The notes: a model not told the origin generated them from the sequence alone. 64,000 nt of DNA from Candidatus Levybacteria bacterium RIFCSPHIGHO2_01_FULL_37_17 (GCA_001782035.1 MFNL01000004.1:9290-73289), one strand, 5' to 3'; counted from the stretch's first letter, positions 9,601 to 45,820 are shown. Numbers and translations are program-made.

Positions 9601-11349
9601 ATTAACTAAAGGCTTCTGTAAGTCTATTTTTCCCAACCCATCGGGAACAACTTGTACGTTTGAGCCTGTTCCAGTATTCGTAGTAAGCAAAAGAGGCTGA
9701 CCCGAAAGTTTAAATGTGCCTCCACTTGCGGTAAAAGTTGGATTAGCAGAGCCTCCGATTGTTAAATTACCGCTTGAATCAAGTGCTAAAACTACGTCAC
9801 TCGTACCTGCACCTGCAGCAGTTGACGGCGGGAGTCCCTGCAAAGTTTCCGAATTTGCAGCATACGCAACGGTTGCTAACTGCTGGCGTGGGGTTAGTTC
9901 GTCTGTTGATTCAATTGTCACACCCAAATAAAGCGCAGCGTTTTCGCTAAACAGGGTAGAGGGAATTGAGGTAACATTTCCTAGAATGTTGTTAAAAATT
10001 CCGTCCGTGTCGGGATTTGCCCTGTCAACTTCCTGCCACAAAAGGGCAGAGCCTGAAGCTGTTATATCGTTGTAAATTGCATAACGAATTAAAGTGCTAG
10101 AGGTAATTGGATTATCGTTTATATCTGTTAACCTACCTTGAAAGGACAAGATTCTGGGAGGAGCAGTAGGTAGGGCTGCGAATGTTGGCTGAGACTGGGG
10201 TTTTGCAAAAAATGCATTATATAAACCAAAACCCACAACCGCTAAAAAGATAATTAAAACCGCAAAATTAAAGTAATGAGCAATTGCATAAGAATGATAT
10301 CTTATGTACCACTTTGGTCTTGTATATCGAGCGTGAAAAATAAGCTTTTGAATTAGGCTCATTTGCTTTGTAGATACTGCAAATGGAGCATAAAGCTTCT
10401 TAGATATATTTTTTATACCTAGCAAATCCCTTGGAGTAATGTTTTTAATGGCAACTGTAGCCTCGCTTTTTTTAAAAACAGGCTGGCCTCTTAGTTTCCA
10501 TAAAGCCTCGATTCCCTTAGACGCAAATGAGGCAAGGGGTGCAGTTAAGATTGCGTCGAAAGTAAGTGAGCCTGCTCTGGCAAGTTTTTGAGCCAGCCTT
10601 AAGGGAGGGAAAGCCGAGTAGCCTTTATGGCTAATGGCTAAGGGTTTATGGCTAAGGGTTTCGGGAATATTTAGAGGCTGTTTTGCTTTGGAAATATTTT
10701 CAACCGAATAATCTCTGCTTACAGTTATTCCTTCTTGGTTCGCCCAGGCTAGATAGCGGCGAAGCGAAGACAATTTTCGATTGACAGTAGCCGGCGAAAA
10801 GCCTACCTCTTGCGTTAGTCTTTTCTTATATTCGTTAATCAACTCCGTATTTAAGGTTGCAAGTATTTCCTCGCTCGTACTGGTATTTAGCACTTGTTTA
10901 GCCCAAGCAATAAATTGTTTAACGTCAATGATATAGTTTTTTATAGTAAGATGTGATGATTTATCTTCAAAGAGGAAGTTTTTAAAATCTTTTAGGCTAA
11001 ACGGATCCTTCTTCGCCAAGGCTTCGGCGGATTCGGTCTTTTGCTGTTCGAATATATTAACTTGAATGATGTCCTCATCTTTGAGGAACTTAAAGAATTT
11101 TCGCAAGCTCGAAACATGCCTTTCCATTGAACTTGCAGATAAACTCTCCGCACTTTCATTCCTGTATGCCTGGATAAATTCAAAGTTAATAGAGTTAGGG
11201 GAAAATGTTCTTCCGGTTTTAGTTTCAAACCAGCGGATGAAATGCGATATATCAGAGATATAATTTTTAACCGTAATCTTAGAAGGAGTTTGTGGTTGTG
11301 AAAAAAGATAGTCTTTAAATCGCGTAAGTATAATAGGCAGGTTATTCAT
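3658..11349 (-). CDS. Giant (2563 aa) membrane-anchored surface fibre-like protein. Order of parts: N-terminal tandem tyrosine-recombinase core-binding (SAM-like) domains; one TM helix; Thr/Ser/Gly/Asn-rich repetitive ectodomain; internal peptidase S74 (phage tail-fibre intramolecular chaperone) domain; a further 558-aa C-terminal region
   Basis: Single ORF in the track. Residues about 20-110 and 125-215 each match the phage-integrase N-terminal SAM-like/core-binding pattern (ITVKNYISDISHFIRWF...MERHVSSLRKFFKFLKDEDII and LTIKNYIIDVKQFIAWA...TVNRKLSSLRRYLAWANQEGI). There is a hydrophobic helix YFNFAVLIIFLAVVGFGLYNAFF around aa 355-378. The ectodomain is low-complexity and rich in T/S/G/N with repeated modules. 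The motif SSDARLKKDI...GFIAQELYEA...IDYGRITPLIVKGVQDQQLQIE (Ser about aa 2005) matches the S-D-x-R-L-K Ser/Lys dyad and downstream consensus of the endosialidase/tail-fibre C-terminal intramolecular chaperone domain. Confidence 0.85.
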   Translation of the reverse strand: MNNLPIILTRFKDYLFSQPQTPSKITVKNYISDISHFIRWFETKTGRTFSPNSINFEFIQAYRNESAESLSASSMERHVSSLRKFFKFLKDEDIIQVNIFEQQKTESAEALAKKDPFSLKDFKNFLFEDKSSHLTIKNYIIDVKQFIAWAKQVLNTSTSEEILATLNTELINEYKKRLTQEVGFSPATVNRKLSSLRRYLAWANQEGITVSRDYSVENISKAKQPLNIPETLSHKPLAISHKGYSAFPPLRLAQKLARAGSLTFDAILTAPLASFASKGIEALWKLRGQPVFKKSEATVAIKNITPRDLLGIKNISKKLYAPFAVSTKQMSLIQKLIFHARYTRPKWYIRYHSYAIAHYFNFAVLIIFLAVVGFGLYNAFFAKPQSQPTFAALPTAPPRILSFQGRLTDINDNPITSSTLIRYAIYNDITASGSALLWQEVDRANPDTDGIFNNILGNVTSIPSTLFSENAALYLGVTIESTDELTPRQQLATVAYAANSETLQGLPPSTAAGAGTSDVVLALDSSGNLTIGGSANPTFTASGGTFKLSGQPLLLTTNTGTGSNVQVVPDGLGKIDLQKPLVNNSNSGNISTVPGSVQINDEFSVLATSSGRSAFTINQDSTGPIISASASGIAQFTIDNSGNETLAGDSTLQGTTGLTLSGADSDLTFTATGNHDISASGGTLRLGALTLTGAVTGNNQSVTGLNNLSAGGTITFSGFNANNNVLYATVSTGVLTGANTNTAGQCLLSGASAPSWSSCPAGTPSNELYWNQTDGALYPNNSTVDLLIGGQSTTSAKFAVLNVNSGTTTATVSGNLVVYPNAGTGGNLTVGTASPTDRVTIAGGGLAFTDDGKGVNFYGGIYLIKAIGGNLQTNGTFQGTTLNGTTGINTGGSGGTQRIDSSGNLLNIGTITASSTITFSTFTSNGGPLYTNGSGQLAQVTAGTTTQCLLGGTTPSFGSCATGQSLDFFWNQTNGALYPNNSTVDLLIGGQATTSAKFAFTGLSNLSNQTQASISGQLIIMPNNGYSGKVGIGTTTPSQLLDVANGQVVVSGSLTTTGSNVGIISVTSTITNSNDAASVRLRNTFNGAGNIPAGIDVAPTFAPSSSIALARGGLLAAFFAPPSSVTITDAIAGDFANVYSAVSGAVTNGTTARIGSPVALGSLKPTTQYGVLVNNQGLSGTTTSYGLYIDSQSGSSTNYSAIFAGGNVGIGDSSPASLFTVGDGDDFQINSTGAITAATGITSSGTITFSAFTSNGGPLYTNGSGVLAQTTAGTSSQCLLGGTSPAFGYCGTGVTTDEFWNQTSGALYTNNSTVDFLFGAQATSSATFRLIGAGGKFQGTNPVASISAHTSFAALVVDNDKTGDLITASNSGVARFVVKGQGNVGIGHSNPISQLYVTRPLLAGATGKALAIFDQIENQDIIAASKSGITQFRIDSSGNTYSSQYYDINDSTYFLDPAGGTSLITSGVFQIAGSTAVAYNRIGTATAGGANVGASNDLLVSDALEVDGLIYADGGIDTTFTAGSVVFAGTSGVLAEDNSNIFYNDSSNLFGLGTATPISVLHATRPLSVQVTGKALAIFDQLENQDLLTASSSGTTKFKIENGGSVDIFSSATDDSIFRVAANSTANYIQSGSALTSGSAKDLYFSSIFGATVWAQIKSDGLFVIGNISTDGDIATTAEELYVEGDIETNANLRVDGTGGITVAGAATTGLNFTNTGVTTDINLQNGETIDNNTNGFIKFTGKAIFDNNGGTVDAVTAGASDVHIGSQIASAGTAGEVSRLTLQPYGWLDGPFHLVARDTASSAFIDWRYDATNLLTIEYNGNVGIGDTSPAALFTVGNGDDFQVSSTGNISSNATGTAFTLSGAATTAISISNTGVTTDINLQNGETIDNNTNGTISFTATTGAFSGALTVDGGAIFNATVDSATDVDISYNRSSSACASCWVLAVENTNTNANQNVMLIQAGVADSTANTWFVAFRDSDEVNQGNIEGCAGNCTFFETSSDARLKKDIVNTHFTIDDLMKIKVRDFTWISDESRVTGFIAQELYEAYEFAVSPGTNGDDFKSNPWGIDYGRITPLIVKGVQDQQLQIEGQKTKMVNIEADLAISNSGNLSIIEQNPDQFIVKESGRNITRIAGLAEAFIGNIRSGIINTRNIVVTGSANIGSITTSSLNVTADSVTIAGQSLRNYIARVVNETITQQQLISPIASSEQISTNLLNPLAKNPDAKIAIKLNDNKGESKLEIQNASGSAVASIDSSGNISANNATLSGTLRAQRIIADQIEGLNIQTATLSANYVTNNYYTASQAATSEPFPTLSASSSGTSNYELASSNYINIATFSSQLAYVDNLNSQTAVFSQGLTTYGITTLSDTSIVGQLAINGTLILAENSINILGSDLNLQPLRQGGISIMAGLIYIDPNGDAKFGSDVTVEGTLYANNIGIKNSELRIQNETDEVLKVDSLGNLVASGAGTFSKLNLSIAQQALAAGNEVLATGSAGTITLKANKSEITVKNTLVTENSLIYVTPVSQTLGQSLYLLRQLPQESFTVGISVPVPIDVKFNFLIIN
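4977..5345 (-). other. Peptidase S74 / intramolecular chaperone auto-processing domain inside the giant protein (predicted self-cleavage at the Ser of SDARLK)
   Basis: Minus-strand codons tca gat gca aga tta aag aag gat ata at 5337-5311. Protein motif SDARLKKDIVN...RDFTWISDESRVTGFIAQELYEAYEF...WGIDYGRITPLIVKGVQDQQLQIE. Confidence 0.65.
7340..9130 (-). repeat. Three copies of a ~55-aa module (QCLLGGT.P.FG.C..G....FWNQT.GALY.NNSTVDLLIGGQ.T.SAKF) encoded at about 7340-7520, 8340-8530 and 8940-9130. Further duplicated modules (DINLQNGETIDNNTNG at about 5690-5740 and 6150-6200; IGD.SPA.LFTVG.GDDFQ..STG at about 5800-5890 and 7660-7740)
   Basis: Repeated peptides are visible in the giant ORF translation. 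They are mirrored by near-identical antisense ORF peptides in the track (e.g. 8327..8512 vs 8783..9046, and 5708..5971 vs 7568..7756). Confidence 0.7.
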
Positions 11350-11924: not shown

Positions 11925-12782
11925 ATGCCCAAAAATAGGTTAAAAGTTTTTAAAGTTCATAAAGTTATAAAGTTTGCGCTGGTACTTTTAACTTTTTCCT
12001 TTCTACTTTATAACTTGCAAAGCTTTAGCTTAGCTCAGTATAAGTTGCCACAGGGAAACTTAAAGACCACAGTTTCAGGAGTTTTGGGTGACTTTTACCT
12101 TAATATCACGGGGTATATTGCTCCGTTCGCATCAATTGTTCTATACGATGGAAATAAAGTTTATCTTCGGGCAACTACAGCGGATGAAAAAGGCTATTTT
12201 AGAATATCAGAAGTTTTAATCAAGATGGGTTTTTCTAAATTTTGTTTTGATGCATATGATTTTAAACGCTTGGGGGAGTCATATTCATGCCAAACAATCT
12301 CACCGGCAACTGGCTCGGTTACTATTAACGATATTTTCTTGCCTCCTACGCTGGGGCTTTCCCGTACAACCATAGAAGCAGGAGGCTCAACTACAGCTTG
12401 GGGATATTCAATGCCTGGAGCAATTGTAACGCTTAATTTTGCAGGTAAAAACCTGACAACCAAGGCTGATCAAAGCGGCTTTTATCAGTTTGTACTTAAA
12501 AATATCGACGCCGGAATATACAAGTTATATGCCAAGGCGGAACTTAACGGCAAAAAGTCACTTGATCCGCAGAAGAAAGTCGAGTTAAAATCGCTATCCA
12601 AAGCAGATCAGGCTATAGCAGTTACAGAAGATTTACTGAAAAAAATCTGGGAGCTTTTAACCACTTACTGGTTTATTTGGATTGTAGTACCGGTTATTAT
12701 CCTAATTATTATACTTTTGTGGAGGCTCTCAAAAATGCACCGACATCACTATTTGCACCATCAATATTTTGTAGGATACTGA
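11925..12782 (+). CDS. Secreted, C-terminally membrane-anchored protein with two prealbumin/Ig-like (carboxypeptidase-regulatory-like) domains
   Basis: 285 aa. N-terminal signal/anchor (FALVLLTFSFLLYNL); GYF.I and GFY.F beta-sandwich motifs; C-terminal TM (WFIWIVVPVIILIIILLW) followed by a His-rich tail. Confidence 0.55.
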   Translation: MPKNRLKVFKVHKVIKFALVLLTFSFLLYNLQSFSLAQYKLPQGNLKTTVSGVLGDFYLNITGYIAPFASIVLYDGNKVYLRATTADEKGYFRISEVLIKMGFSKFCFDAYDFKRLGESYSCQTISPATGSVTINDIFLPPTLGLSRTTIEAGGSTTAWGYSMPGAIVTLNFAGKNLTTKADQSGFYQFVLKNIDAGIYKLYAKAELNGKKSLDPQKKVELKSLSKADQAIAVTEDLLKKIWELLTTYWFIWIVVPVIILIIILLWRLSKMHRHHYLHHQYFVGY

Positions 12783-13754
12783 TTATTTTTCCGAGGCGTT
12801 TTCAGGCTCTTTTGTGGCCTCGCTTGAGCCTTTAGGACCGCTTTCTTGTCTCCTTTGGTAGTATTTCCAGCCTAATAATACCGCAACGGCTACAAGAATT
12901 ATTATAATTGTAACTTTCCACGGGAATACCCAGAAAGTAAGTGAGGCGACCAAAGGCAAATTATTATCTGTGCCATATGATGCAGCCAGTTTTGCGTTGT
13001 ACGGTCCAATCATAAACATGCTTCCGAAAGTATTTTCATAATCTCTAACCGTTTCCGGGAATATATTTCTTTGGTCAAGCTGCTGGCTTTCGTTAAAGAA
13101 AAGCCCGCTTACCGTAATGCTTCCTTTAGGCATAATATGAAGATCGGAAGCGTTTTTAATCTGTGTCAAAATTTTTATTGGGCCATACTCGGCAAGCATG
13201 TCGGTAAAAAACTTACTTACTTCTGCTTTTATAGTTACATCACCGGCAACTGTAATGTAGAAAAGCGAACCAAGCTGTGTATTAACCGTTCCCCCTGTTG
13301 CATCTTTTTTTTCTTGATTTATAGGCTCATATACCAAAGCGGCATAATGGCCTCCGGGTTTGGCATCGGCAGGAACCCTCAAATAGTAGCTGATTATTTG
13401 TGTTGCGCCGGGTTGTAGTGTAAATTCATTTGGAGTAGCAACAATCCATGATGCAGCCGAATATTTATTATTGAGAGTATTTGGAGCAAGAAGCTGGGGA
13501 GTTCCTTTGCTGTCGGATACAATATAATCTTGAACGCCGACTTTAAAAGTTAGCGCAATATTGCTTTCGTTTACAATTTTGGTTGTTCCCTCTGTGGACT
13601 GTCCGGGATTTAACTCGTGAGAAATATTTGGATTAATTAAAGTAATTGTTCGCTGCAGTTCTTGTGCAAAAGCTGTCCCTACTGTTAAAAAAACCAAAGC
13701 AAAAAGCGTGGTTGCAAGTACTCTTTTCTTAAATTTTAAGGGCAGATTTTTCAT
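12783..13754 (-). CDS. CscA/DUF916-like cell-surface protein (signal peptide, about 270-aa ectodomain, C-terminal TM anchor)
   Basis: 323 aa. Signal peptide LATTLFALVFLTVGTAFA. Shares the motif SW(I/V)....E.TL.P......I...VP..A..G.H with the 343-aa ORF (15266-16297) and the 376-aa ORF (43083-44213). C-terminal TM VTIIIILVAVAVLLGW. Confidence 0.55.
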   Translation of the reverse strand: MKNLPLKFKKRVLATTLFALVFLTVGTAFAQELQRTITLINPNISHELNPGQSTEGTTKIVNESNIALTFKVGVQDYIVSDSKGTPQLLAPNTLNNKYSAASWIVATPNEFTLQPGATQIISYYLRVPADAKPGGHYAALVYEPINQEKKDATGGTVNTQLGSLFYITVAGDVTIKAEVSKFFTDMLAEYGPIKILTQIKNASDLHIMPKGSITVSGLFFNESQQLDQRNIFPETVRDYENTFGSMFMIGPYNAKLAASYGTDNNLPLVASLTFWVFPWKVTIIIILVAVAVLLGWKYYQRRQESGPKGSSEATKEPENASEK

Positions 13755-13756
13755 TT

Positions 13757-15262
13757 TTAAAAGTTACCAGTTGCAACAAAAGTAAATACTGTTGAATAAA
13801 TTCCTGCAGGAGTGGTTGCTCCTACGGTTGCCGCATATTCTATTTCTGTCTTTCTTGCGCTAGCCGGTGCGCTATAGTTTGCTATATTGGCATAATATCC
13901 GTTAACGCCGGTGTTAAATGGATTTGAGTATTTTGCACCGCTTGAAAAATCTGTTGCAGCATTAGCCCATGTAGTAGCGTTGACATCTGCCCCGCAAGGA
14001 TGAATTCCAAAGTATGCGTTGCCTGTTGCAGGGAATATCGCAGGAGCAGGCGTATCAACTGCAGTTAAACCGCTACTGCTCATGTTATCTGTCAGGAAAA
14101 ATCCGCTTGAAGGGTTTATAAATCTTCCCGAAGATGTTGCAGTAATGGAGTATCCGAATGCGCCATTTGTTGATACAGAAAGTTCTTGTGCTGAAATATT
14201 AATTATTCCATTTGATAAGGAGCCTAAGTTTACAAAAGTCGATGTCGCATCAAGACCAGTCCCAGGGTTAGTTGTATCGCCTGCCGCGCAGGAACCATTT
14301 TGCGAGTTAATATTTGTACCGTTTGCAAGACCTGTTATTGTAAATGTTAGAGAAGGCTCAACAGTTCCTTGTACCTGAACTGCTTCAATTATTCCTATTT
14401 TTACGCTTGCCGTGTCTAAATCTACGTCGCTGGCATTCCTAGTTGTAACAGTTACTTTCCAGGTGCTAGCAGTTCCTGCTGTTATGCCTCCTTTAACAGG
14501 ATTGATAAGAGCAGGGGCATAAGTTGAGCAAATTCCGCTTGCGGAAACTGTTCCGGTGCATCCTATTGCCAAATAAACCGTCGTTGCGCCCGAAATCGCA
14601 GCGCCCGTTGTGACCGTAATAGATGGGGAAGATACCGAAACTCCTCCGGAGCATGCGGTTGTTGGATTGCACAAAACTGCGGAGCTGCCTAAATTGTTAA
14701 ACGCGAAAGTGGTTGCCGAAGGCGATGAAATATTGCTTGCAGAGCCTGGGAATGTCACTACTATTTTTCCGCCACTTGGAACAGATGAAACAGTCGTAAA
14801 TTTAATAATGTGAGTTGCGGTAATTGAGGTGTACATCGCGGTGCCAGCGTGGTGAGTATTTGTTACTTGTCCTGTGAAGAAAACAGTTCTTAGGTTTGAA
14901 GATGGCGTGTTGGCGGCTGACATAGACGCAACCGTTGCAGTCTCTAAAGTTTGTCCTGTGTCGTTTAGTAAAACTGCGCTATCAGATGCAATCCAGAGCG
15001 CAGAATTATAGACTGTGGTTGGCAAATCTATTACGGTTACTTGAGTTGCGTTTGCGGCCTGATCAGCAGATATAGGAGCCGAAGCAGAAGGGCGGGATGT
15101 AGTTAAAGTATCCGATACGTTAGAAAGAGTTGCGGCGTAGGTTTTAGCTGTTCCAAGTAATAAAAAAGCTAATAGAAATGTAAACAGCAAAGAAGCAAGT
15201 TTTTTGATAAATTCCATTTTAATCCCTACCTCTAATATGCAATCATAAAAGCATAAAGTCAA
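13757..15262 (-). CDS. Secreted Ser/Thr/Gly/Ala-rich surface protein with a WxL-like C-terminal motif (TPAGIYSTVFTFVATGNF)
   Basis: 501 aa, signal peptide, low-complexity T/S/G/A-rich sequence. Its C-terminal motif is shared with the ORFs at 16306-17037, 40862-43120 and 44218-44925. Confidence 0.5.
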   Translation of the reverse strand: MTLCFYDCILEVGIKMEFIKKLASLLFTFLLAFLLLGTAKTYAATLSNVSDTLTTSRPSASAPISADQAANATQVTVIDLPTTVYNSALWIASDSAVLLNDTGQTLETATVASMSAANTPSSNLRTVFFTGQVTNTHHAGTAMYTSITATHIIKFTTVSSVPSGGKIVVTFPGSASNISSPSATTFAFNNLGSSAVLCNPTTACSGGVSVSSPSITVTTGAAISGATTVYLAIGCTGTVSASGICSTYAPALINPVKGGITAGTASTWKVTVTTRNASDVDLDTASVKIGIIEAVQVQGTVEPSLTFTITGLANGTNINSQNGSCAAGDTTNPGTGLDATSTFVNLGSLSNGIINISAQELSVSTNGAFGYSITATSSGRFINPSSGFFLTDNMSSSGLTAVDTPAPAIFPATGNAYFGIHPCGADVNATTWANAATDFSSGAKYSNPFNTGVNGYYANIANYSAPASARKTEIEYAATVGATTPAGIYSTVFTFVATGNF

Positions 15263-15265
15263 GAG

Positions 15266-16297
15266 TTAATTTATCTTATTTTTAACTCGAAGCACTATAA
15301 AAACAACAATTCCCAAAACTATTAAAATTACTGCTAAATAAGTTGCCGGGAATGCAAAAAAAGAAACAGATCGGCTGAATTTTTCCCCATTTTCACCAAA
15401 TGTCAGACTTAAGTTTGCTTTATAAGGGCCAATTAGAAATTTTTCAGGCCAAATTGCCACAGGATAATTGGAGCTCGTAATCGTTTTTTCTATTTCTTTA
15501 AACTCCGCTGAATCCACTTTTATCTGTGTTTCATCCGGTATTAATCTTTGTGATCCTGCCAAAACATTTACAGATAAAAGTTTTACTTTTCCAACTTTTT
15601 GTCCGAATAAATTTTCAATAATAATCTCACCATTTATTGGGACAAAATGATCACTTGCGTTTTCAACCTGAACGGTAAATGGAACCGGGCCACTGTCTAT
15701 AAATAAAGGGGAGCTGAATTTGTCAATAAAGCCTTTAGTTTCGCCTTTCGGACCAACTGAAAGCAGAACATTCATTGCAACGCCGGCTGATGCAAGAGAT
15801 GAATTTGAAATCGTATCGGGCTTTGGATTTGTGGCAAAGAAAACCGTAAAATAATAATCTCCTTTGGCTTCATTCGGTGGTATATTTACTTCGAAGTCAA
15901 ATTCTTTTTTCTGCTTTGGAGAAAGCGTAAATGATCTTATTGATATTCCTTTATCTTTAATTTTAATTCTGTTTATAAGAAGGGGGTCAGGGAAGCTTTC
16001 AAATGTATCTAAAATCTCAATTTGTCCGTTGTTTGAAGTTGAAGCCTTAAAGGCTTTAAGCTGAATAATAATATCAAGGCTCTGCTCTGTTGGATTTTCC
16101 AGGCTAAATTTGGATTTTACCTCGGCAGGTGAAGTTGCATCAATTTCCATAACAGGTGGGAAAATTCCCAAAGAAACACTTTGAGCGAAAGCGTTTCGAG
16201 TTGAAAGTTGAAAGTAAAAAGTTGAAAGTAAAAGAAATACGAAGATTTTAAACTTCAAACTATTAAAAATAACTTTAAAAACTTTATAACTTTTCAC
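15266..16297 (-). CDS. CscA/DUF916-like cell-surface protein, paralog of 12783-13754
   Basis: 343 aa. Signal peptide; IGPYKANLSLTFG matches IGPYNAKLAASYG in the 323-aa paralog; C-terminal TM ATYLAVILIVLGIVVFIVL. Confidence 0.55.
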   Translation of the reverse strand: MKSYKVFKVIFNSLKFKIFVFLLLSTFYFQLSTRNAFAQSVSLGIFPPVMEIDATSPAEVKSKFSLENPTEQSLDIIIQLKAFKASTSNNGQIEILDTFESFPDPLLINRIKIKDKGISIRSFTLSPKQKKEFDFEVNIPPNEAKGDYYFTVFFATNPKPDTISNSSLASAGVAMNVLLSVGPKGETKGFIDKFSSPLFIDSGPVPFTVQVENASDHFVPINGEIIIENLFGQKVGKVKLLSVNVLAGSQRLIPDETQIKVDSAEFKEIEKTITSSNYPVAIWPEKFLIGPYKANLSLTFGENGEKFSRSVSFFAFPATYLAVILIVLGIVVFIVLRVKNKIN

Positions 16298-16305
16298 TTT
16301 ATAAA

Positions 16306-17037
16306 CTAATAACTTGGTATTGCTATATAATTTACTATATTTCGATATAGTCCTGCGGGCTGAGTTCCTGAAATATTAACTTTATAGGTTATATCAGATT
16401 TTCTGTTTCGTCCTACATTTGTAGAACTCATTACTGCAACTGCGGAAGGCGAGGATATAAAAGATTTGTAATAAGTCGGATCCGAAAATCCGCTTACGCA
16501 GTCTGTGCCTGAAACGTTATCGCATCTATAACCAAATCCATAAGTTAAGGCACTTGTCCATGCGGCTGAAGTTGTTGGAGTGCACGTTCCGCCGTCGCAG
16601 GAAGTTGCCGGAATATCAAACCCGCTGGCATCCACTCTTAAATCGTGGTTTTGCGAAACCGTAACTTGGTAACCGTAAGCCGAGCCGTTTGAAACCGTTA
16701 GCTGGTTGGTTCGGCTAACTGGCGAAGTTGGTGAAATAACTCCAAAATCAACCAAGGTGCTAGAAATTGAAAATCTGAAGTAAATTATGCTTGATATATA
16801 CTGAAAGCCTGCGCGCACTTTATAGTTGGGTCCTGTAAAAAGATTATTCGGAGTCTGTCCGGATGTAAATTGTAATTGAAAACCTGAGCCCGTCGGTTTT
16901 CCCGCAATGCTATTTAAATTTCCCATTTGCAGGATGTAACTGTCGTTTTTGAGAGTTTGACCCCAAACCCTTGATACACCAAATAGCATTAAAGTAATAT
17001 ATAGCCATATTAAAATGATGAATAATAAGTATTTCAT
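16306..17037 (-). CDS. Small secreted WxL-like surface protein
   Basis: 243 aa with a signal peptide. Contains AAWTSALTYGFG and the C-terminal motif TQPAGLYRNIVNYIAIPSY, which is shared with the other three cassette proteins. Confidence 0.45.
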   Translation of the reverse strand: MKYLLFIILIWLYITLMLFGVSRVWGQTLKNDSYILQMGNLNSIAGKPTGSGFQLQFTSGQTPNNLFTGPNYKVRAGFQYISSIIYFRFSISSTLVDFGVISPTSPVSRTNQLTVSNGSAYGYQVTVSQNHDLRVDASGFDIPATSCDGGTCTPTTSAAWTSALTYGFGYRCDNVSGTDCVSGFSDPTYYKSFISSPSAVAVMSSTNVGRNRKSDITYKVNISGTQPAGLYRNIVNYIAIPSY

Positions 17038-17681
17038 TTTTCTTGATTTTCCTTAGATTCTTCTCGCAAGTCTCCAGTTTCTTCAAGGATTTCGTTTAAC
17101 TTTTCCAAATCCTCTTCTTTAAGCATACCTTTTTCATCCTCAATTATCTCTTCTACGTCTTTTGAAATAGTATCTGCAGCTTCTTTTTCCCGTTCCTCTA
17201 TTGCGTTAACTTTTTCATCCTGCTGGTCGGATTTTTGATATTCACGGCCGAAAAAATAGGCAAGTGGCGACACCAGAGCAATAGATGCCACTTTTAAAAT
17301 ATTAGCAGTAAAATCTCCGGTGTTTAAATCCGGAATAAAAATTAGGATAGACCCTGCAATAAATATAAAAACTGTTAAAGGATCAAAGACGAATGCAATT
17401 CCAAAAGCAAGAAAATATATTATAAAAAATAAAGGGCTGTTTAGGCCTCCTGTTGCAAAAATAAGAAGGAAGACGAGCGTATTTAATATAAATATGCCAA
17501 AGTTGCCTTCCTGCCCAAGTTTTAGAAAGGTTTTACCTCGTCTTCTTGCAACAAGCAGTAGATATAAAGCTATGAAAAGCCCTAAAAGCTGGACCGTATA
17601 ATCCTTAAGTGGGGAGTTTTGCCAGATGTAAATAACGCCAAAAGAAAGCACAAGAGTTGCGCCTTGGACAGCAAGTTTCAT
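17034..17681 (-). CDS. Polytopic membrane protein with an acidic coiled-coil C-terminal tail; first gene of the 17681-to-12783 operon
   Basis: 215 aa; four or more TM helices; E/K-rich tail. Its stop codon overlaps the start of the next ORF by 4 nt. Confidence 0.45.
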   Translation of the reverse strand: MKLAVQGATLVLSFGVIYIWQNSPLKDYTVQLLGLFIALYLLLVARRRGKTFLKLGQEGNFGIFILNTLVFLLIFATGGLNSPLFFIIYFLAFGIAFVFDPLTVFIFIAGSILIFIPDLNTGDFTANILKVASIALVSPLAYFFGREYQKSDQQDEKVNAIEEREKEAADTISKDVEEIIEDEKGMLKEEDLEKLNEILEETGDLREESKENQEK

Positions 17682-17736: not shown

Positions 17737-20043
17737 ATGAAAAAGTACTTCGCAAACGAGATTGAGCAAAAATGGAGAGCGAAATGGCGAGAAGAAAAAG
17801 TTTATAAGTTCAAAGAAGATCCAAAAAGGCAAAAATACTACAATTTAGTTGAGCTTCCATACCCATCGGGCGACTTACATTTAGGACACTGGTTTGCATT
17901 TACGCCTCCGGACGTCCATGCAAGATATAAAAGGATGAAAGGCTATAATGTTTTCTTCCCAAATGGCTTCGACGCCTTTGGTCTTCCTGCGGAAAACGCA
18001 GCAATAAAGAATAGAATTCATCCCAAAGATTGGACTTATAAAAATATAGAAACCATGAAAAAGCAGTTTGAAACAATGGGAACCATGATTAACTGGGATG
18101 CTGAGGTAATAACTTCAGATCCTGCTTTTTACAAATGGAACCAGTGGATTTTTCTCAAGTTGTTTGAAAGAGGCTTGGCATACAGAGGAAAAGCTTTATC
18201 TAATTGGTGCCCAAAAGACTTAACAGTTTTGGCAAATGAGCATATAGAAGGTGGAAAATGCTGGCGATGCGGGACCGAAGTGGTTCAAAAAGAAGTAGAG
18301 CAGTGGTTTTTAAAAATAACAGAATATGCTGATCAATTAATCTGGCCCGATAATCCTGATTTTGATTGGCCAAAAGAGGTAAAGGAAGGCCAAAATAACT
18401 GGATCGGTAAAAAAGAGGGGATGTTAATCAAATTTAAACTGGCTCATGCGCCTAGTTTTTCCCCTACGGGGATAGACGTTTTTACAACAAGACCTGAAAC
18501 AACCGATGGAGCCTCATTTCTGGTTATTGCCCCCGAACACACATTTGTTCAAAAGATTTTAAAAGAGCAAAGTTCTAAAACAAATAGCGAATATAAAACT
18601 ATAGAGAAATATGTATCAGAAGCAGAAAAAAAGACGGAAATGCAAAGAAAAGAGGACAGAACTAAGTCCGGAGTTTTCACAGGAGAATGGGCTGTCAATC
18701 CAGTAACAAAGACTGAAATTCCAATATGGATCTCCGACTACGTGTTGGCAGGTTATGGAACTGGCGCTATTATGGCTGTTCCTTTCGCAGATCAGCGGGA
18801 TAGAGAATTTGCAGAAAAGTTTAAATTGCCCGTCCCAGAAACTAAATTTAAGGCCAAGCCAGAAGGCAAGAAGTCAGTTAATTATCATCTTCGGGATTGG
18901 TCTGTCTCGCGTCAGCGCTATTGGGGAACTCCTGTGCCTGTGATTCATTGTCCAAAAGATGGAATTGTTCCGGTTCCGCTTGAAGATTTGCCTGTTGAGT
19001 TGCCATATGAAGTCGATTTTACTCCAAAAGGAAAACCGCCTTTAGCTTCAGATGAGGCTTGGTTGAATACCAAGTGCCCAAAATGCGATGGAAAAGCAAA
19101 AAGAGATGCAGAAACGCTAGATACTTTTTTTGACAGCTCCTGGTACTTTTTCCGCTACTGTTCACCTAAGTACGACAAGGGGCCATTTGAAAAGCAAAGA
19201 GTTAAAGAATTAATGCCAATTGATATTTATTTTGGAGGCTCAGAACACACACTAGGACACACTTTGTACGCACGATTTTTCACGAAATTCTTTAAAGATT
19301 TAGGACTGATTACTTTTAGCGAGTTTGCAAATAAACGAGCCCAGCACGGAGTTATTTTGGGGCCTGACGGAGCAAGAATGAGCAAAAGTAGGGGTAATGT
19401 AGTAAATCCGGATGATTTTGTAAAAGAATACGGGGCAGATACCATGCGTCTTTATATTTGTTTTATGATGCCTTACAGCGCAACTGCTCCGTGGTCGGAC
19501 AACGCAATAGCCGGAGTTTATAAGTTTTTAAAAAGAGTTTGGGATTTACAATTTAGCCTCAAAAATAAAGATTTAGATGATGAAGACTTATTTCAAATGC
19601 ATTCCGCAATAAAAAAAGTCGGAGAAGATCTTGAAAGTTTGAATTTTAATACAGCAGTATCGGCCATGATGATTTGGCTTAACTTTTTAAGTTCAAAAGG
19701 AGCGTCAAAAGAGGAATATGAAGCTATTTTGAAGCTTCTTGCGCCATTTGCCCCTTATATAACCGATGAAATTTGGCACTTATTAAATCCAGCTGCTAAC
19801 GCTATACACTTAGAGAATTTCCCTTTATTTCAATCTAAATTCATAAAGCGCGAAAACGCCCAAATTGTTGTACAAGTTAACGGAAGAGTCAGGGACACAA
19901 TTCAAATTTCCATGAGCCAAGCTGAAAATAAGAAATTCGTCGAAACTGAGGCTAAAAAAGGCGAAAAAGTAAAAAAATATCTTGAAGGTAACGTGAAAAA
20001 AACAATTTATATTCCAGCCAAACTCATAAATTTTGTAGTTTAA
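17737..20043 (+). CDS. leuS: Leucyl-tRNA synthetase
   Basis: 768 aa. HLGH (HIGH-type) motif; RMSKSRGN (KMSKS) motif; overall LeuRS architecture (PYPSGDLHLGHWFAFTPPDVHARYKRMKGYNV). Confidence 0.93.
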   Translation: MKKYFANEIEQKWRAKWREEKVYKFKEDPKRQKYYNLVELPYPSGDLHLGHWFAFTPPDVHARYKRMKGYNVFFPNGFDAFGLPAENAAIKNRIHPKDWTYKNIETMKKQFETMGTMINWDAEVITSDPAFYKWNQWIFLKLFERGLAYRGKALSNWCPKDLTVLANEHIEGGKCWRCGTEVVQKEVEQWFLKITEYADQLIWPDNPDFDWPKEVKEGQNNWIGKKEGMLIKFKLAHAPSFSPTGIDVFTTRPETTDGASFLVIAPEHTFVQKILKEQSSKTNSEYKTIEKYVSEAEKKTEMQRKEDRTKSGVFTGEWAVNPVTKTEIPIWISDYVLAGYGTGAIMAVPFADQRDREFAEKFKLPVPETKFKAKPEGKKSVNYHLRDWSVSRQRYWGTPVPVIHCPKDGIVPVPLEDLPVELPYEVDFTPKGKPPLASDEAWLNTKCPKCDGKAKRDAETLDTFFDSSWYFFRYCSPKYDKGPFEKQRVKELMPIDIYFGGSEHTLGHTLYARFFTKFFKDLGLITFSEFANKRAQHGVILGPDGARMSKSRGNVVNPDDFVKEYGADTMRLYICFMMPYSATAPWSDNAIAGVYKFLKRVWDLQFSLKNKDLDDEDLFQMHSAIKKVGEDLESLNFNTAVSAMMIWLNFLSSKGASKEEYEAILKLLAPFAPYITDEIWHLLNPAANAIHLENFPLFQSKFIKRENAQIVVQVNGRVRDTIQISMSQAENKKFVETEAKKGEKVKKYLEGNVKKTIYIPAKLINFVV

Positions 20044-20044
20044 A

Positions 20045-20641
20045 ATGGAAGATTTGCAAGAGCAGCTTGCTCCTATTTTTAAAAGATTTTGGCTCCCTAT
20101 AGTTCTTGCTTTGATCGCTTTGATGTTTTTTGCATATGGTATGATATCTTTGCTGTCAAAATCTTCTACCCCTCAAGTTAGATTTGAAACCGTTGAGTCT
20201 CTTCAAGCAGAAGCAGAAATCGCTGTTGATATCGAAGGCGCAGTAGTTAAACCGGGCGTATATAAGCTCAAATCAGGTTCAATTGTTCAGGAAGCATTAA
20301 TTGCGGCAGGAGGAGCATCAGAGGACGCAGATAGGGAATGGATGGCAAAAAATTTGAATTTGGCCTTAAAACTTACAAATGGACAAAAAATATATATTCC
20401 AAAATTGGGAGAGACCGGAACTATTTCTGTAATTCAAGACGTTGAAAGCAACTCAACAGCTCTTATAAACATAAATACAGCATCAAGTAGCGAATTAGAC
20501 ACGCTTCCCGGCATAGGTCCGGTAACAAGTACGAAAATAATAGATAACAGGCCATATAACTCAATAAATGACCTTTTAGACAAAAAAATTGTCGGGCAAT
20601 CAACCTTTGAGAAGATAAAAGATAAAATAACCACTTTGTGA
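20045..20641 (+). CDS. comEA: Competence protein ComEA (SLBB domain plus tandem helix-hairpin-helix)
   Basis: 198 aa with an N-terminal TM. C-terminus NINTASSSELDTLPGIGPVTSTKIIDNRPYNSINDLLD. Confidence 0.85.
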   Translation: MEDLQEQLAPIFKRFWLPIVLALIALMFFAYGMISLLSKSSTPQVRFETVESLQAEAEIAVDIEGAVVKPGVYKLKSGSIVQEALIAAGGASEDADREWMAKNLNLALKLTNGQKIYIPKLGETGTISVIQDVESNSTALININTASSSELDTLPGIGPVTSTKIIDNRPYNSINDLLDKKIVGQSTFEKIKDKITTL

Positions 20642-21873
20642 AAAGTCTGCTCCTTTTTTATTTACTGCTTGTCTTATTAGTTGCTGCTCGTTTATTTTTA
20701 TTTTATTCAAACCAGCCGACATTTGCCGATAAACAACAGGTTATTTTCAAAACAACAGTAAACACCTCTCCTAAAAGCTTTAATAACTATCAGACTTTGT
20801 GGGTAAATATCTCTCCTACTACCGGCGCGCTACTCAAATTACCCGTAGATATGCAGCTGTCTTACGGAGATATAGTTTTAATTTCTGGCAGACTAAATAA
20901 TAAACTGCTAGATAGTGGTGATAATATTTTCACAATAGATTATCCAATAATCGAGCCTAAAAGTAGTGAAAAGTCCCCATTTTTAGCAGTCATATATTCT
21001 ATTCGCCAACATATAATTGATTATTTTAAGCAACATTTGGATAATGTTTCTGCAGGACTTTTGCTTGGAATAGTTTTTGGTATTAAAGACAATATACCAA
21101 AGCAGTTTCTTGATCAGATACAACAAACGGGCGTAATGCACGTTGTAGCAGCTTCGGGCATGAATGTAACTATGGTATCGGGATTTCTTTTTTATTTTTT
21201 TATTTTGTTTTTAAAAAGACAAATTGCAATAGTAGCAGCAATAGGAGGAATCGCTTTTTACGTGATTCTAGCAGGCTTTGAGGCCTCTATTGTGCGCGCT
21301 GCAATAATGGGTTCAATTGTATTTGGAGCACAAATCATCGGAAAGCAAAAAGAGAGTGCCCACATTTTGTTTCTGACAGTAATTTTAATGCTATTCTTGT
21401 GGCCGGAATTTTTAATTAGTATCGGTTTTCAGTTAAGCGTTGCTGCAACCTTGGGAATTCTTTTCATCCCTATGCTTTTTTCGCGCTTTACAAATAGTTT
21501 TACCGAGGTATTTATTGTCACAATTTCAGCCCAGCTTGCTACTTTGCCAATTTTAATTGCAAATTTTGGAGCCTATTCGGTTCTTTCTATATTTACAAAC
21601 GCTTTTGTATTGTGGACTATTCCAATCCTCACAATTTTAGGCATGATTTCGGCGGTTTTTGTTTTTATTTTGCCGCTTTTTGCGAGTTTGTTTTTGTACA
21701 TTGCACTTCCTTTTTTGCTCTTTTTTAGAACGGTAGTAGAGTTTTTTGCCTCAACTACCGCAATTTTGACATTTTCGAGTTTTTCCTGGCAATTCAGTCT
21801 TGCTTATTATTTTATACTTGCTGCTGCAGTTTTGTTTTTTTATGAAAAGATACATAAGCGTTCTTTTTCTTAG
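20638..21873 (+). CDS. comEC: ComEC/Rec2 N-terminal portion (DUF4131 plus competence channel domain)
   Basis: 411 aa polytopic protein; competence-domain motif TGVMHVVAASGMNVTMVSGF. Confidence 0.8.
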   Translation: MKSLLLFYLLLVLLVAARLFLFYSNQPTFADKQQVIFKTTVNTSPKSFNNYQTLWVNISPTTGALLKLPVDMQLSYGDIVLISGRLNNKLLDSGDNIFTIDYPIIEPKSSEKSPFLAVIYSIRQHIIDYFKQHLDNVSAGLLLGIVFGIKDNIPKQFLDQIQQTGVMHVVAASGMNVTMVSGFLFYFFILFLKRQIAIVAAIGGIAFYVILAGFEASIVRAAIMGSIVFGAQIIGKQKESAHILFLTVILMLFLWPEFLISIGFQLSVAATLGILFIPMLFSRFTNSFTEVFIVTISAQLATLPILIANFGAYSVLSIFTNAFVLWTIPILTILGMISAVFVFILPLFASLFLYIALPFLLFFRTVVEFFASTTAILTFSSFSWQFSLAYYFILAAAVLFFYEKIHKRSFS

Positions 21874-37831: not shown

Positions 37832-38230
37832 TTACTTTAGCTCTACAGTAGCGCCTGCTGCAGTTAATTTTTCCTTAGCTTCATTTGCTGTTTGTTTGTT
37901 AACTGCTGTCATTACTTCTTTTGGAGCTGTATCTACCAATGCTTTTGCATCGGCGAGTCCCAAAGTTGGAACTAATTCTCTAATCACTTTAATTACTGCA
38001 ATTTTGTTTGCTCCACCTGAGGCAAGCATTACATTAAATACAGTTTGTTCGCTAACTTCTTCTCCTGCTTCAGCTGATGCTGCTGCTCCTGCCTGCGCCG
38101 GTGCGGCTGCAACCATTGATTGAGCAGAAACTCCAAACTTCTCCTCGAGTTTCTTTACAAATTCCGAAAGTTCGAGAACTGACATTTCTTCAACTGCTTT
38201 TAAAAGATCTTCTTGATTTACTTTTGCCAT
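37832..38230 (-). CDS. rplL: 50S ribosomal protein L7/L12
   Basis: MAKVNQEDLLKAVEEMSVLELSEFVKKLEEKFGV...; the ATG overlaps the TGA stop of rplJ. Confidence 0.9.
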   Translation of the reverse strand: MAKVNQEDLLKAVEEMSVLELSEFVKKLEEKFGVSAQSMVAAAPAQAGAAASAEAGEEVSEQTVFNVMLASGGANKIAVIKVIRELVPTLGLADAKALVDTAPKEVMTAVNKQTANEAKEKLTAAGATVELK

Positions 38231-38934: not shown

Positions 38935-38940
38935 AAAATA

Positions 38941-38966
38941 AAAAAACACTCCTAAAACAGAGTGTT
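38941..38966 (-). promoter_or_regulatory. Hairpin plus U-tract immediately upstream of the rplJ start codon. A candidate L10-leader attenuator that sequesters the GGAG Shine-Dalgarno
   Basis: Minus strand reads AACACTC TGTTTTAG GAGTGTT TTTTATTTT ATG. The 3' stem arm contains GGAGTG 13 nt before the ATG. Confidence 0.45.
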
Positions 38967-39276
38967 AACGAGTTCTAAGATTGAACTCTAGTTTACCGCT
39001 CGACAGGTCTTATTTTTGCGCCTGTTGTCTTAGGTTAAACCATTTTAACAAAGGCTTGTTAAAACGTCAAGTCAGGATTTTTGCCTCGAAGATATTCTTT
39101 TTCAATCTTAGGAGGAATAGGGCGGAATTGAACAGTATCTTTTTCTGGTGTTTTTACAGCAGCATTAAAAACAGGTACTTTTTCGGTCCAAGAACGTAAA
39201 TTTGATATAACTCTTTCTATCATAACTTGAGGTGGTATTATAACTTATAACTCAATAAATTACAATCTGTTACAGT

Positions 39277-40266: not shown

Positions 40267-40313
40267 ATAAGTTAGCGACAGTAGAATATATCAAAGTATA
40301 GCAGGTAAGTCAA

Positions 40314-40694: not shown

Positions 40695-40861
40695 AAAATT
40701 TCTCCTTGCTTTGAAGGACAGAAGAAAAATCTAAAGTAATAGTCTTAAGCATTTTGTACCAGTACGTAATATTAACTATCAATTATTTATTCAAAGAAAG
40801 GTTAAGAGATAATACTATCTTAATTTAAAGTTGTAAAGAGGAATAAAACAATCAAAAGTGG

Positions 40862-44213: not shown

Positions 44214-44217
44214 AGAT

Positions 44218-45818: not shown

Positions 45819-45820
45819 AC

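Follow-up and report, generated by a model that had tools for sequence, protein, structure and literature searches.

The window analysed here, that is, the whole 64,000-nt stretch of the Candidatus Levybacteria bacterium RIFCSPHIGHO2_01_FULL_37_17 genome (a CPR bacterium; MFNL01000004.1:9290-73289), carries two clusters of genes for secreted and membrane-anchored proteins. Cluster 1 (12783-17681) consists of five tightly packed minus-strand ORFs in the order A-B-C-D-E; the initial annotation had described a five-gene minus-strand operon running from 17681 to 12783 and all five ORFs were confirmed. The genes, two C-terminal motifs and two neighbouring genes are:

17034-17681, minus strand: A, a polytopic membrane protein of 215 aa with which cluster 1 begins (ORF and hydropathy)
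16306-17037, minus strand: B, a 243-aa secreted PamT-like subunit (matches to NF058579 and NF058581, below their cut-offs)
16309-16362, minus strand: C-terminal strand motif of B, QPAGLYRNIVNYIAIPSY
15266-16297, minus strand: C, a 343-aa membrane-anchored WxLIP/PapD-like chaperone candidate (PamC/PamD counterpart)
13757-15262, minus strand: D, a 501-aa secreted S/T-rich pilin candidate (NF058581, B-family HMM and synteny)
13760-13813, minus strand: C-terminal motif of D, TPAGIYSTVFTFVATGNF
12783-13754, minus strand: E, a 323-aa membrane-anchored WxLIP/PapD-like chaperone candidate
11925-12782, plus strand: F, convergent to cluster 1, a 285-aa protein with Ig-like domains as well as a signal peptide and, at the C-terminus, a TM helix
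3658-11349, minus strand: a giant fibre-like protein of 2563 aa

By hydropathy A has about four hydrophobic segments and an acidic C-terminal tail, and it matched no family in scans with the Pfam and NCBIfam models. The true start of D is likely to be the ATG at 15217. The order A-B-C-D-E, F and the giant gene is kept in two other genomes with close homologues (loci L013 and L014), where a 210-214-aa gene lies upstream of the PamT-like gene in the position of A, a 481-482-aa gene takes the position of D, and the F-type gene keeps its position and orientation and is followed by a very large gene. F gave weak matches to CarboxypepD_reg and Big_6 (its TM helix lies at residues 241-272), and the giant protein matched Phage_int_SAM_1 at residues 9-92 and Peptidase_S74 at residues 2002-2053; we count the latter as a conserved neighbour rather than as a demonstrated part of the machinery.

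The family assignments of B and D point to the Pam pili described from Candidatus Mycosynbacter amalyticus, whose pilins polymerise by donor-strand exchange as seen by cryo-EM, whose operon encodes FimC/PapD-like chaperones with a C-terminal TM helix, whose conserved neighbourhood includes a tail-fibre-like protein and which have homologues in Microgenomatia (Troman et al. 2026, bioRxiv 10.64898/2026.03.03.709456). B matches NF058579 (PamT) with 33.9 bits (E 2e-8; residues 8-129 on model positions 6-127 of 241); the curated cut-off of this model is 240 bits and therefore, by NCBI's rule, B is not a PamT equivalog. It also matches NF058581 (the Pam pilin C-domain; curated cut-off 55 bits) with 35.2 bits (E 1e-8) over residues 93-243. 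These matches recur in the B family, NF058581 being matched by all 36 of its 36 members (best E 7.8e-10) and NF058579 by 35 of the 36. The sequence of B is identical to that of a Candidatus Levybacteria protein and it has 1078 homologues, the best 120 of which are 58-85% identical to it and, where a name is given, come almost always from Levybacteria or Patescibacteria. D is made up of an N-terminal domain and a Pam-type C-terminal domain, the latter (residues 340-501) matching NF058581 at 27.2 bits (E 3e-6; below the 55-bit cut-off), and a profile of the 243-aa family matches D at E 7e-8. Cluster 1 resembles a pam operon in having Sec-exported B and D with a C-terminal domain matching the Pam pilin C model below its cut-off, a PamT-like N-terminal half in B, in C and E a pair of PapD-fold proteins of two domains that the operon encodes and that carry a C-terminal TM helix, an Ig-like TM protein (F) that could take the role of PamR, an adjoining tail-fibre-like giant protein, no usher or sortase that was detected, and a CPR-restricted distribution with homologues in Microgenomatia. 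It differs in that its sequences are very divergent and far below the NCBI cut-offs (35 versus 55 and 34 versus 240 bits), that the host class is Microgenomatia rather than Saccharimonadia, that there is one long pilin (D) in place of PamA, PamB and PamE, and that the polytopic membrane protein A is added. On these profile matches we take cluster 1 to be, most likely, a distant, Microgenomatia-type pam operon, a relationship that the initial annotation had overlooked; B is predicted to be the pilus tip or acceptor and F is possibly a PamR-like membrane tether.

Cluster 2 (40862-44925) is a paralogous, widespread and unnamed three-gene module resembling the WxL surface clusters known from lactic acid bacteria. 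Its 376-aa, 777-aa and 235-aa ORFs and the LysM tail had all been noted previously and were found again. Its features, with the repeats that flank it, are:

44218-44925, minus strand: G, a 235-aa small subunit
44221-44319, minus strand: segment of G, WKL...PAEQ...YDINLTLSVVAS
43083-44213, minus strand: H, a 376-aa anchored WxLIP-type chaperone candidate with LysM after the TM helix
40862-43195, minus strand: I, the large subunit (777 aa), whose N-terminal domains vary and whose C-terminal domain is of the G type
40865-40960, minus strand: segment of I, WDL...PAEQ...YTIEMTITVTAN
40314-40499: copy 1 of the direct repeat, a duplicate of the 3' end of rplA at the far edge of the cluster 2 insertion
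44994-45179: copy 2 of the direct repeat, formed by the intact rplA gene's 3' end

G comprises a signal peptide, an N-terminal strand that hardly varies (TSNFTQTINAGSLAVDIVD), and a pilin-like domain of about 190 aa that no Pfam or NCBIfam model matched; its fold is a pilin-like incomplete Ig fold, resembling polymerising pilins. It has 732 homologues, with 61-78% identity across distant CPR lineages, and shares 41% identity with residues 568-777 of I (BLASTP, E 2e-39), the start of I being likely the ATG at 43117. In a survey of the G-type domain (709 clusters at 50% identity) it was C-terminal in all 150 of the cluster representatives listed, in proteins of 160-2069 aa. Neither G nor I matched the Pam models NF058579 and NF058581, a further difference from the Pam system. 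In other CPR genomes the anchor comes next after the small subunit at 67 of 72 loci, and 44 of 54 have the complete small-anchor-large triad, spread over many CPR lineages. The LysM of H (residues 329-372, 32.8 bits) is kept in 61 of 65 module anchors; the tail is predicted to be cytoplasmic, a location of which a filament model gives no account.

An element common to the two clusters is the anchor protein. C, E and H each have an N-terminal hydrophobic leader and a single C-terminal hydrophobic helix, bearing out the signal peptide and TM anchor originally proposed for C and E, and are mutual homologues (BLASTP, E 1e-11 to 1e-13); of the sequence motif said to be shared by C and E, SW[IV] is found in the 323-aa and 376-aa proteins and is absent from the 343-aa protein. 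The suggested check against PF06030 (DUF916; cut-off 27.3 bits) came out positive for H (32.6 bits), while C (25.4 bits, E 1.5e-5) and E remained sub-threshold; 22 of 31 anchor family members match this model. PF11797 (DUF3324), also put forward, was matched by no cluster protein in the Pfam scan; we nevertheless counted the anchors as WxLIP proteins, which are defined by PF06030, PF11797 and a C-terminal TM helix. A Firmicute WxLIP HMM matches H at E 3.6e-7, the ectodomains alone align with those of Firmicute WxLIPs at E 1.4e-5 (hhalign), and when the PDB was searched with the anchor profile EfmWxLIP1 was the sole match (E 3.5e-4 over both domains; H itself, E 0.018 over residues 28-259). Judged by these comparisons C, E and H are true relatives of the DUF916/WxLIP (CscA-type) proteins. 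They have the two-domain PapD-type chaperone fold, as do the chaperones of chaperone-usher systems, which suggests that a filament is assembled and not a static complex; this fold is as near to pilus chaperones as to WxLIP. With their C-terminal TM helix and their place in the operon C and E look like the FimC/PapD-like chaperones of Pam. None of the three anchors matched a Pam chaperone model. The Pam preprint makes no mention of its chaperones belonging to DUF916/WxLIP (10.64898/2026.03.03.709456).

The genomic setting of cluster 2 invites a different explanation, namely that it encodes a lattice of the envelope or S-layer type, or else is a mobile island of adhesin genes, horizontally acquired, with G as a plentiful wall protein that the anchor with its LysM would hold in place. 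The two repeats are 94% identical over the 186 nt of copy 1, and the Ribosomal_L1 match of the ORF at 40314-40694 is confined to its last 56 residues. The genes run nusG-rplK-rplA-[G, H, I, L1 fragment, SDR gene]-rplJ-rplL, and the module, lying between duplicated rplA 3' ends, splits rplKAJL. It occurs in other contexts in other genomes, and the GC content of G and I (0.43-0.46) is above the window mean (0.38). No integrase or other mobility gene was found inside the insertion, however. The conservation of G across distant lineages, unusual as it is, could be taken to favour an abundant wall protein, but S-layer proteins are usually poorly conserved, and the pairing of G, in the module, with an anchor of PapD fold and with another protein bearing the same domain fits the logic of chaperone and subunit. 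We regard a lattice or island in place of a pilus as improbable.

The four secreted proteins B, D, G and I all end in a beta-strand motif with neither hydrophobic tail nor basic anchor. A common (Q/T)PAG.Y ending had been attributed to all four; it is exact in the 243-aa and 501-aa proteins (B and D), whereas G and I have QPAASDY and QTAGSY. The second motif, W.L.G.SISQ..PAEQ, is exact in two of the four, as had been stated (position 203 of the 235-aa and position 746 of the 777-aa protein). A looser pattern (small-small-Y followed by alternating hydrophobics within the last 22 residues), set post hoc and run on the window ORFs of at least 60 aa, picked out exactly B, D, G and I among 146. By BLASTP B and D have only their last 28 residues in common, but the profile of the 243-aa family does reach D. 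The four do not form one detectable family: the B/D and G/I pairs were not linked by pairwise or profile comparison. This, and the exact motif being confined to two of four proteins, is what might be said for unrelated low-complexity S/T-rich proteins with no common function, alike at their C-termini by chance. That idea, to which we give almost no weight, is already contradicted by the size and strong conservation of the families (1078 and 732 homologues; 709 clusters at 50% identity), by the conserved gene order, by the match of curated pilin models to B and D, and by the paralogy of all three anchors.

The initial annotation saw in both loci an analogue of the Csc/WxL clusters, which are known from Lactobacillales and Bacillales (Siezen 2006; Brinster 2007; Hassan and Williamson, PMC9772566, PMC10599100; PDB 9i1y, 9i25), and this holds for the anchors and the architecture and fails for PF13731 (WxL) membership and for a single family of four C-termini. 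On such a reading two WxL-like domains and a WxLIP would make up a non-filamentous, wall-bound platform, with LysM adding peptidoglycan binding, that would present either the giant fibre or N-terminal domains with an adhesive or polysaccharide-binding function. The resemblance is real in that the anchors are WxLIP homologues with two Ig-like domains and a C-terminal TM helix, that H carries LysM, and that in cluster 2 the WxLIP gene stands beside the genes of a small protein, essentially the bare domain, and of a large one that has this domain at its C-terminus (compare Firmicute locus L001), which is the commonest WxL cluster of Hassan et al., one WxLIP with a small and a large protein (PMC10599100). 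In the WxL system a WxLIP strand is predicted by AF2 to make the beta-sandwich of WxL complete (Hassan et al. 2023). The G-type domain is C-terminal in its 150 listed representatives, like WxL, and shares collinear motifs with it (an aG.L strand, a GW.L strand, G.W.L and a terminal VP...a..Y...L.[WL].L); the G/I domain aligns with WxL at E 1.1e-3 (hhalign), weakly but collinearly, with global P values of 1.4e-4 and 2.9e-4 against 0.4-0.8 for reversed controls. The B-type domain showed no significant similarity to WxL, and the solved WxL chain 9i25_A is not among the listed matches of G, its presence in the searched libraries being unconfirmed. Against a platform, PF13731 gave no match at E up to 1 in B, D, G, I or 46 homologues of G, where WxL clusters have at least two PF13731 proteins. 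An LPXTG protein (CscD) and a sortase are frequent, not essential, in WxL/Csc clusters; in the window ORFs of 60 aa or more neither a credible LPXTG sorting signal nor a TLxTC motif turned up (sortases being sought by motif only), leaving the CscD-like part of the analogy without a counterpart. Pfam revealed no domain for carbohydrate binding in any of B, D, G and I, and nothing points to the proposed carbohydrate binding. LysM follows the TM helix on the predicted cytoplasmic side, the host is a CPR bacterium and not a Firmicute, and what is described for WxL clusters is a platform bound to peptidoglycan and not a filament, a Firmicute model that is itself largely in silico. Finally, Pam pilins, whose models match B and D, are shown filaments, G has a fold like that of polymerising pilins, and the anchor fold is equally close to pilus chaperones and WxLIP. 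We consider a wall-bound platform possible but unlikely.

With the chaperone-usher pili of Gram-negative bacteria (Pap, Fim, CFA/I, Csu) the loci share the incomplete Ig fold of G and a C-terminal strand motif in which a conserved glycine goes with alternating hydrophobics and with an aromatic residue at the end; such a motif resembles chaperone-usher pilin C-termini. No sequence-level membership of chaperone-usher families was detected, no usher-like family was found in the 19 window proteins scanned against Pfam, and in place of an outer-membrane usher and a soluble periplasmic chaperone, in a cell with neither outer membrane nor periplasm, the candidate chaperones are TM-anchored in the cytoplasmic membrane. 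CPR cells are known to have no outer membrane. Sortase-assembled Gram-positive pili have subunits with an LPXTG signal and a pilin motif, and a pilus-specific sortase; the subunits here end in a beta-strand motif, and the window ORFs of 60 aa or more showed no LPXTG or TLxTC motif. Monoderms and archaea also have donor-strand fibres (TasA/camelysin, archaeal threads, cannulae); these are, as far as we know, chaperone-free, and gave only stray sub-threshold matches (PF12389, E 0.057 in one of 46; TapA, E 0.12 in one of 46).

The reading that we favour is a filament. Its parts in cluster 1 would be the PamT-like B, the two-domain pilin D, the anchored PapD-fold chaperones C and E, the membrane protein A and probably the tether F, and in cluster 2 the very conserved small G, the anchored chaperone H with its LysM tail and the large I. 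All would be exported by Sec; the anchored chaperone would then insert a strand to cap the incomplete Ig-like C-terminal domain of a subunit (donor-strand complementation), and the strand of the next subunit would displace it (donor-strand exchange), so that the filament would grow from the membrane with neither usher nor sortase. The donor strand may be the N-terminal extension in G and the linker preceding the C-terminal domain in D and I, and the C-terminal motif (small-G-x-Y, then alternating hydrophobic and aromatic residues) would be the last strand, pairing with the donated one. Strand insertion, polymerisation and the order of subunits, like the functions given to A, to F and to the LysM tail, are put forward on this model, as is the formation of helical filaments by donor-strand exchange. 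Both clusters probably encode surface filament systems, chaperone-assisted and without an usher, of a monoderm CPR bacterium, and thin surface filaments with a membrane-anchored helper protein are their most likely product.

The open reading frames that the initial annotation had proposed for the two loci were all present. Cluster 1 (12783-17681) consists of five minus-strand genes, A-E, packed tightly with gaps or overlaps of no more than 8 nt, together with the convergent gene F, and cluster 2 (40862-44925) of genes G, H and I:

Gene A: 17034-17681, minus strand, 215 aa, roughly four hydrophobic stretches, acidic tail
Gene B: 16306-17037, minus strand, 243 aa
Gene C: 15266-16297, minus strand, 343 aa
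Gene D: 13757-15262, minus strand, 501 aa, translation probably starting from the ATG at 15217
Gene E: 12783-13754, minus strand, 323 aa
Gene F: 11925-12782, plus strand, convergent and abutting E, 285 aa; leader, Ig-like domains and a C-terminal TM helix
Giant protein gene: 3658-11349, minus strand, 2563 aa, on the far side of F
Gene G: 44218-44925, minus strand, 235 aa
Gene H: 43083-44213, minus strand, 376 aa
Gene I: 40862-43195, minus strand, 777 aa; probable start 43117

By hydropathy, N-terminal leaders are present on B, C, D, E, F, G and H and one C-terminal helix each on C, E, F and H. C, E and H are referred to here as the anchors and B, D, G and I as the secreted subunits. The B protein has an exact match in Candidatus Levybacteria bacterium RIFCSPHIGHO2_01_FULL, which assigns the window to a CPR genome within the Microgenomatia. 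The motif W.L.G.SISQ..PAEQ was exact in G and I, as had been reported, but (Q/T)PAG.Y, attributed to all four secreted proteins, was exact in B and D only, with QPAASDY in G and QTAGSY in I as its counterparts; SW[IV], ascribed to both cluster 1 anchors, is common to E and H and absent from C. A loosened pattern covering the last 22 residues, defined post hoc, selects precisely B, D, G and I among the 146 ORFs of the window. Residues 568-777 of I are 41% identical to G. The BLASTP alignment of B with D is limited to the last 28 residues, and an HMM of the B family matches D (E 7e-8), pointing to a C-terminal domain common to both. No method, pairwise or profile, found a relationship between B/D and G/I, and comparison of the B and G family profiles was not significant. 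The four C-termini that had been grouped under one motif, and their proteins in one family, therefore represent two separate families with a short strand-like pattern in common.

The anchors are mutual paralogues (E 1e-11 to 1e-13), and for them the Csc/WxL reading of the initial annotation was borne out. The PF06030 model (DUF916, now 'WxLIP_PGBD') scored 32.6 bits against H (cut-off 27.3), 25.4 against C and 16.6 against E, and was matched by 22 of 31 members of the anchor family. EfmWxLIP1 of Enterococcus faecium (9i1y, 9i25) was the sole sequence match of H in the PDB (E 0.018, both domains) and the only one found when a profile of the 31 anchors was run against the whole PDB sequence set (E 3.5e-4, both domains spanned). 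For the reciprocal test Firmicute WxL clusters were taken from plasmids, and an HMM built on nine of their WxLIPs ranked H (3.6e-7) and E (5.5e-6) top among the 146 window ORFs. Aligned with hhalign at full length, the anchors and the Firmicute WxLIPs gave a probability of 97% (E 1.3e-11); with leaders and TM helices stripped this was 80% (E 1.4e-5 over 209 columns), the reversed control giving P 0.29. The anchors of both clusters belong to the same family as the WxLIPs of enterococci, listeriae and lactobacilli, and their fold is that of the Gram-negative pilus chaperones. The NCBIfam scan of the 31 anchors matched no Pam chaperone model. A structure has been solved in which EfmWxLIP1 is in complex with a WxL domain protein of E. 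faecium (9i25, chains A and C, and 9i1y, the latter released on 2026-01-28). The strand of WxLIP predicted by Hassan et al. (2023) as completing the beta-sandwich of WxL amounts, as modelled, to donor-strand complementation.

In the Bacillus anthracis pXO1, B. cereus and B. mycoides plasmids a cluster of WxL, WxLIP and large WxL genes is placed immediately downstream of Flp/Tad-type genes (CpaB, AAA ATPase, CpaF/VirB11) and of three tiny genes of about 67 aa, and on these plasmids it may belong to a larger locus for a pilus or for mating pairs.

What the initial annotation, largely correct in its observations, had missed was the probable pilus identity of cluster 1. Searches with the Pam pilus models of NCBIfam release 20 matched B to CPR_Pam_pilin_C (E 1.1e-8, residues 93-243) and CPR_pilus_PamT (E 2.1e-8, residues 8-129) and D to CPR_Pam_pilin_C (E 3.3e-6, residues 340-501), and among sampled homologues of B the former model was matched by 36/36 and the latter by 35/36. 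All of these scores are far under the curated cut-offs, so the NCBI pipeline would leave the proteins unnamed. The models originate in a 2026 preprint (10.64898/2026.03.03.709456) in which cryo-EM of the filaments of Ca. Mycosynbacter amalyticus identified PamA and PamB as the pilins, with PamT, a single-domain tip, in the same operon, PamC and PamD being FimC/PapD-like with a C-terminal TM helix and PamR consisting of two FnIII-like domains and a TM helix; homologues are reported from Saccharimonadia and Microgenomatia, with a tail-fibre-like gene conserved alongside. Cluster 1 agrees with this description point by point and is probably a distant operon of the Pam pilus type: B resembles PamT, D would be the long pilin, the anchored two-domain proteins are C and E, F supplies the Ig-like TM protein, and the tail-fibre-like neighbour has its counterpart in the giant protein with its Peptidase_S74 domain at 2002-2053. 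C and E are the putative equivalents of PamC/D, on architecture, fold and operon position. The gene order leuS / A-B-C-D-E / F (convergent) / giant gene is repeated in two other genomes whose B homologues are 64-65% identical. PDB sequence searches with B, D and G and with the B and G family profiles gave nothing meaningful, PamA and PamB being either missing from the set or too distant.

Directly beside cluster 1 (17737-21873) lie comEA (SLBB and HHH_3 domains), comEC (Competence domain) and leuS, and the three genes again adjoin the cluster in two other Microgenomatia genomes, so that a DNA-uptake locus and the putative pilus operon are conserved neighbours. The giant protein begins with two phage-integrase SAM-like domains, predicted to be cytoplasmic, and continues through a TM segment and a long Gly/Ser/Thr-rich region to the S74 domain, an intramolecular chaperone of tail fibres; it joins, unusually, a module of DNA-binding type to a fibre.

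Cluster 2 has the architecture of a WxL cluster, as had been suggested: a small subunit, a WxLIP-type anchor and a large subunit, with a C-terminal domain common to the two subunits (compare 791 aa, 245 aa and WxLIP in an Enterococcus faecalis example). It is a variant outside all Pfam and NCBIfam models scanned. G has 732 homologues, the best 120 of which are 61-78% identical and, where named, come from Kerfeldbacteria, Peregrinibacteria and other Patescibacteria; a precomputed Pfam domain was present in two of these 120, as a PG_binding_1 extension (PF01471). A full HMMER scan for G returned 709 clusters at 50% identity (408 at E <=1e-30), and in 150/150 of the clusters listed the domain of about 190 aa (the G-type domain) was C-terminal, in proteins of 160-2069 aa. 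In a synteny survey of GTDB species representatives (79 loci) an anchor gene came next after the small gene in 67 of the 72 loci with room, and the complete small-anchor-large triad was found in 44 of 54. The module is present in many genomes of Saccharibacteria, and the lineages also take in, among others, Doudnabacteria, Gracilibacteria, Peribacteria, Kerfeldbacteria, Falkowbacteria and Dojkabacteria. Pfam and NCBIfam scans of 46 G homologues revealed no WxL, Pam or other consistent family.

At 11 surveyed loci from Gracilibacteria and Peribacteria (L019, L023-L026, L030, L032, L035, L041, L042 and L049) the G-type and anchor genes appear fragmented under table 11, a pattern compatible with UGA coding for an amino acid (code 25), and the survey therefore undercounts those lineages. 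Several further loci with the module of CPR type (L021, L022, L028, L045, L047, L056, L057, L062, L064, L069, L079 and L087) come from 'binchicken' TPA assemblies titled Gammaproteobacteria, Ectothiorhodospiraceae, Pseudomonadales or Christensenellaceae. These MAGs are either misnamed or come from mixed bins; a transfer beyond CPR seems the less probable explanation. In the window, cluster 2 (context 37832-47215) is flanked by a 186-nt direct repeat of the rplA 3' end, 94% identical (40314-40499 and 44994-45179), and the gene order is nusG-rplK-rplA, then G, H, I, an ORF for an L1 C-terminal fragment and an SDR gene, then rplJ-rplL. The module thus breaks the normally contiguous rplKAJL and resembles an inserted island with target duplication; no integrase was found within the bracketed insertion, and in other genomes the module is located elsewhere.

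The proposed membership of the secreted proteins in the WxL family (PF13731) was not supported: the model was unmatched by G, I, B, D and the 46 G homologues. In hhalign the G family scored a probability of 20% (E 1.1e-3) against 12 Firmicute WxL domains, and global alignment of 133 diverse G-domain representatives reached P 1.4e-4 with those 12 WxL sequences and 2.9e-4 with a set of 24, with reversed controls at 0.4-0.8; enlarging the WxL alignment from 12 to 24 Firmicute sequences did not improve the score. Four recognisable motifs are matched in collinear order: nAGtLsvDIVD with tAGpLsIdyV, IrV.N.ta..gWTLsIAA with v.V.D.Rg.n.GW.L.V, a mid-domain G.W.L, and SISQ.IPAEQpa.s.Y.I.mtLti with l.L.VPa....a..Y...LtW.L. 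On these alignments remote homology of the G-type domain and WxL is probable but unproven. The B family and its C-terminal domain gave no significant match to WxL, the best local match being GYqVTV to the GW.L.V motif (P 0.04-0.25). The AF2 model of G (pLDDT 75.5) shows a predicted pilin-like fold; Foldseek against the PDB returned nothing at E <=0.001, the best being CfaB and CanA (E 0.04-0.14), and the solved WxL chain 9i25_A was not among the matches listed, its presence in the searched libraries being uncertain. G is most invariant in its N-terminal strand, TSNFTQTINAGSLAVDIVD, of which residues 39-45 have pLDDT <50. The equivalent strand in I, GGTLSADIVD, lies directly ahead of the C-terminal domain, at the position matching that of the donated linker in the Pam pilins. 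TasA/camelysin-type fibres were considered for the N-terminal strand of G and yielded only stray sub-threshold matches.

The best-supported mechanism is a chaperone-assisted, usher-less donor-strand assembly at the cytoplasmic membrane, with strand insertions and polymerisation that we infer. Sec would export all the parts; the anchored PapD-fold protein would cap the incomplete C-terminal Ig domain of a subunit, and a strand of the next subunit would then displace that of the anchor, the fibre being extruded from its base. The conserved C-terminus, in which a small residue and G-x-Y are joined by alternating hydrophobics, an aromatic (at +6, in B and D) and a terminal aromatic, would form the final strand, beside the donated one; chaperone-usher pilins carry a similar C-terminal signature. 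We also infer B to be the tip, F a tether and A to have a role. Sortase-dependent pili were rejected because neither an LPXTG signal nor a sortase motif was found among the window ORFs. Carbohydrate binding, which the initial annotation had suggested, was unsupported. A LysM domain in H (residues ~297-372, with the preceding KRKRWIKK cluster) is kept in 61/65 module anchors across CPR lineages and is absent from the cluster 1 anchors. As it follows the TM helix and the K/R cluster it is predicted to be cytoplasmic, which is odd for a peptidoglycan-binding module and unexplained by donor-strand assembly.

CPR bacteria are thought to live attached to host cells, with attachment organelles of which very little is known. 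Cluster 1 probably represents a new and very divergent member of the system described in 2026, which would reach Levybacteria in a form that current NCBI models leave unnamed, and the G-H-I module, with no family model, is far more widespread than the Pam type, extending from Saccharibacteria to Gracilibacteria, Kerfeldbacteria and Dojkabacteria. WxL/Csc clusters, linked to virulence and gut colonisation, have long been puzzling; the kinship of the anchors with WxLIP, together with the pilus-chaperone fold, offers a concrete and testable mechanism for them, and hints at a common origin of chaperone-assisted fibre assembly with and without an outer membrane. In the literature searched the link between the Pam chaperones, WxLIP and the PapD fold is unmade: no paper tied WxL to PapD, donor strands or CPR, WxL/Csc clusters, Pam pili and the CPR module were nowhere connected, and the Pam preprint (10.64898/2026.03.03.709456) mentions neither WxL nor DUF916. 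We consider it possible, though rather short of probable, that the Firmicute WxL/Csc clusters, the Pam pili and the G-H-I module are three branches of one old monoderm system, in which a membrane-anchored PapD-fold chaperone (WxLIP, PamC/D or H) would assemble subunits whose C-terminal Ig domain is incomplete, using donor-strand complementation and exchange, free of an usher. If this is true, WxLIP would be a pilus-type chaperone and not a peptidoglycan- or host-binding protein, the WxL proteins of enterococci, listeriae and lactobacilli may form short fibres, and no other uncharacterised pilin of the CPR would be as widespread as the G-type domain.
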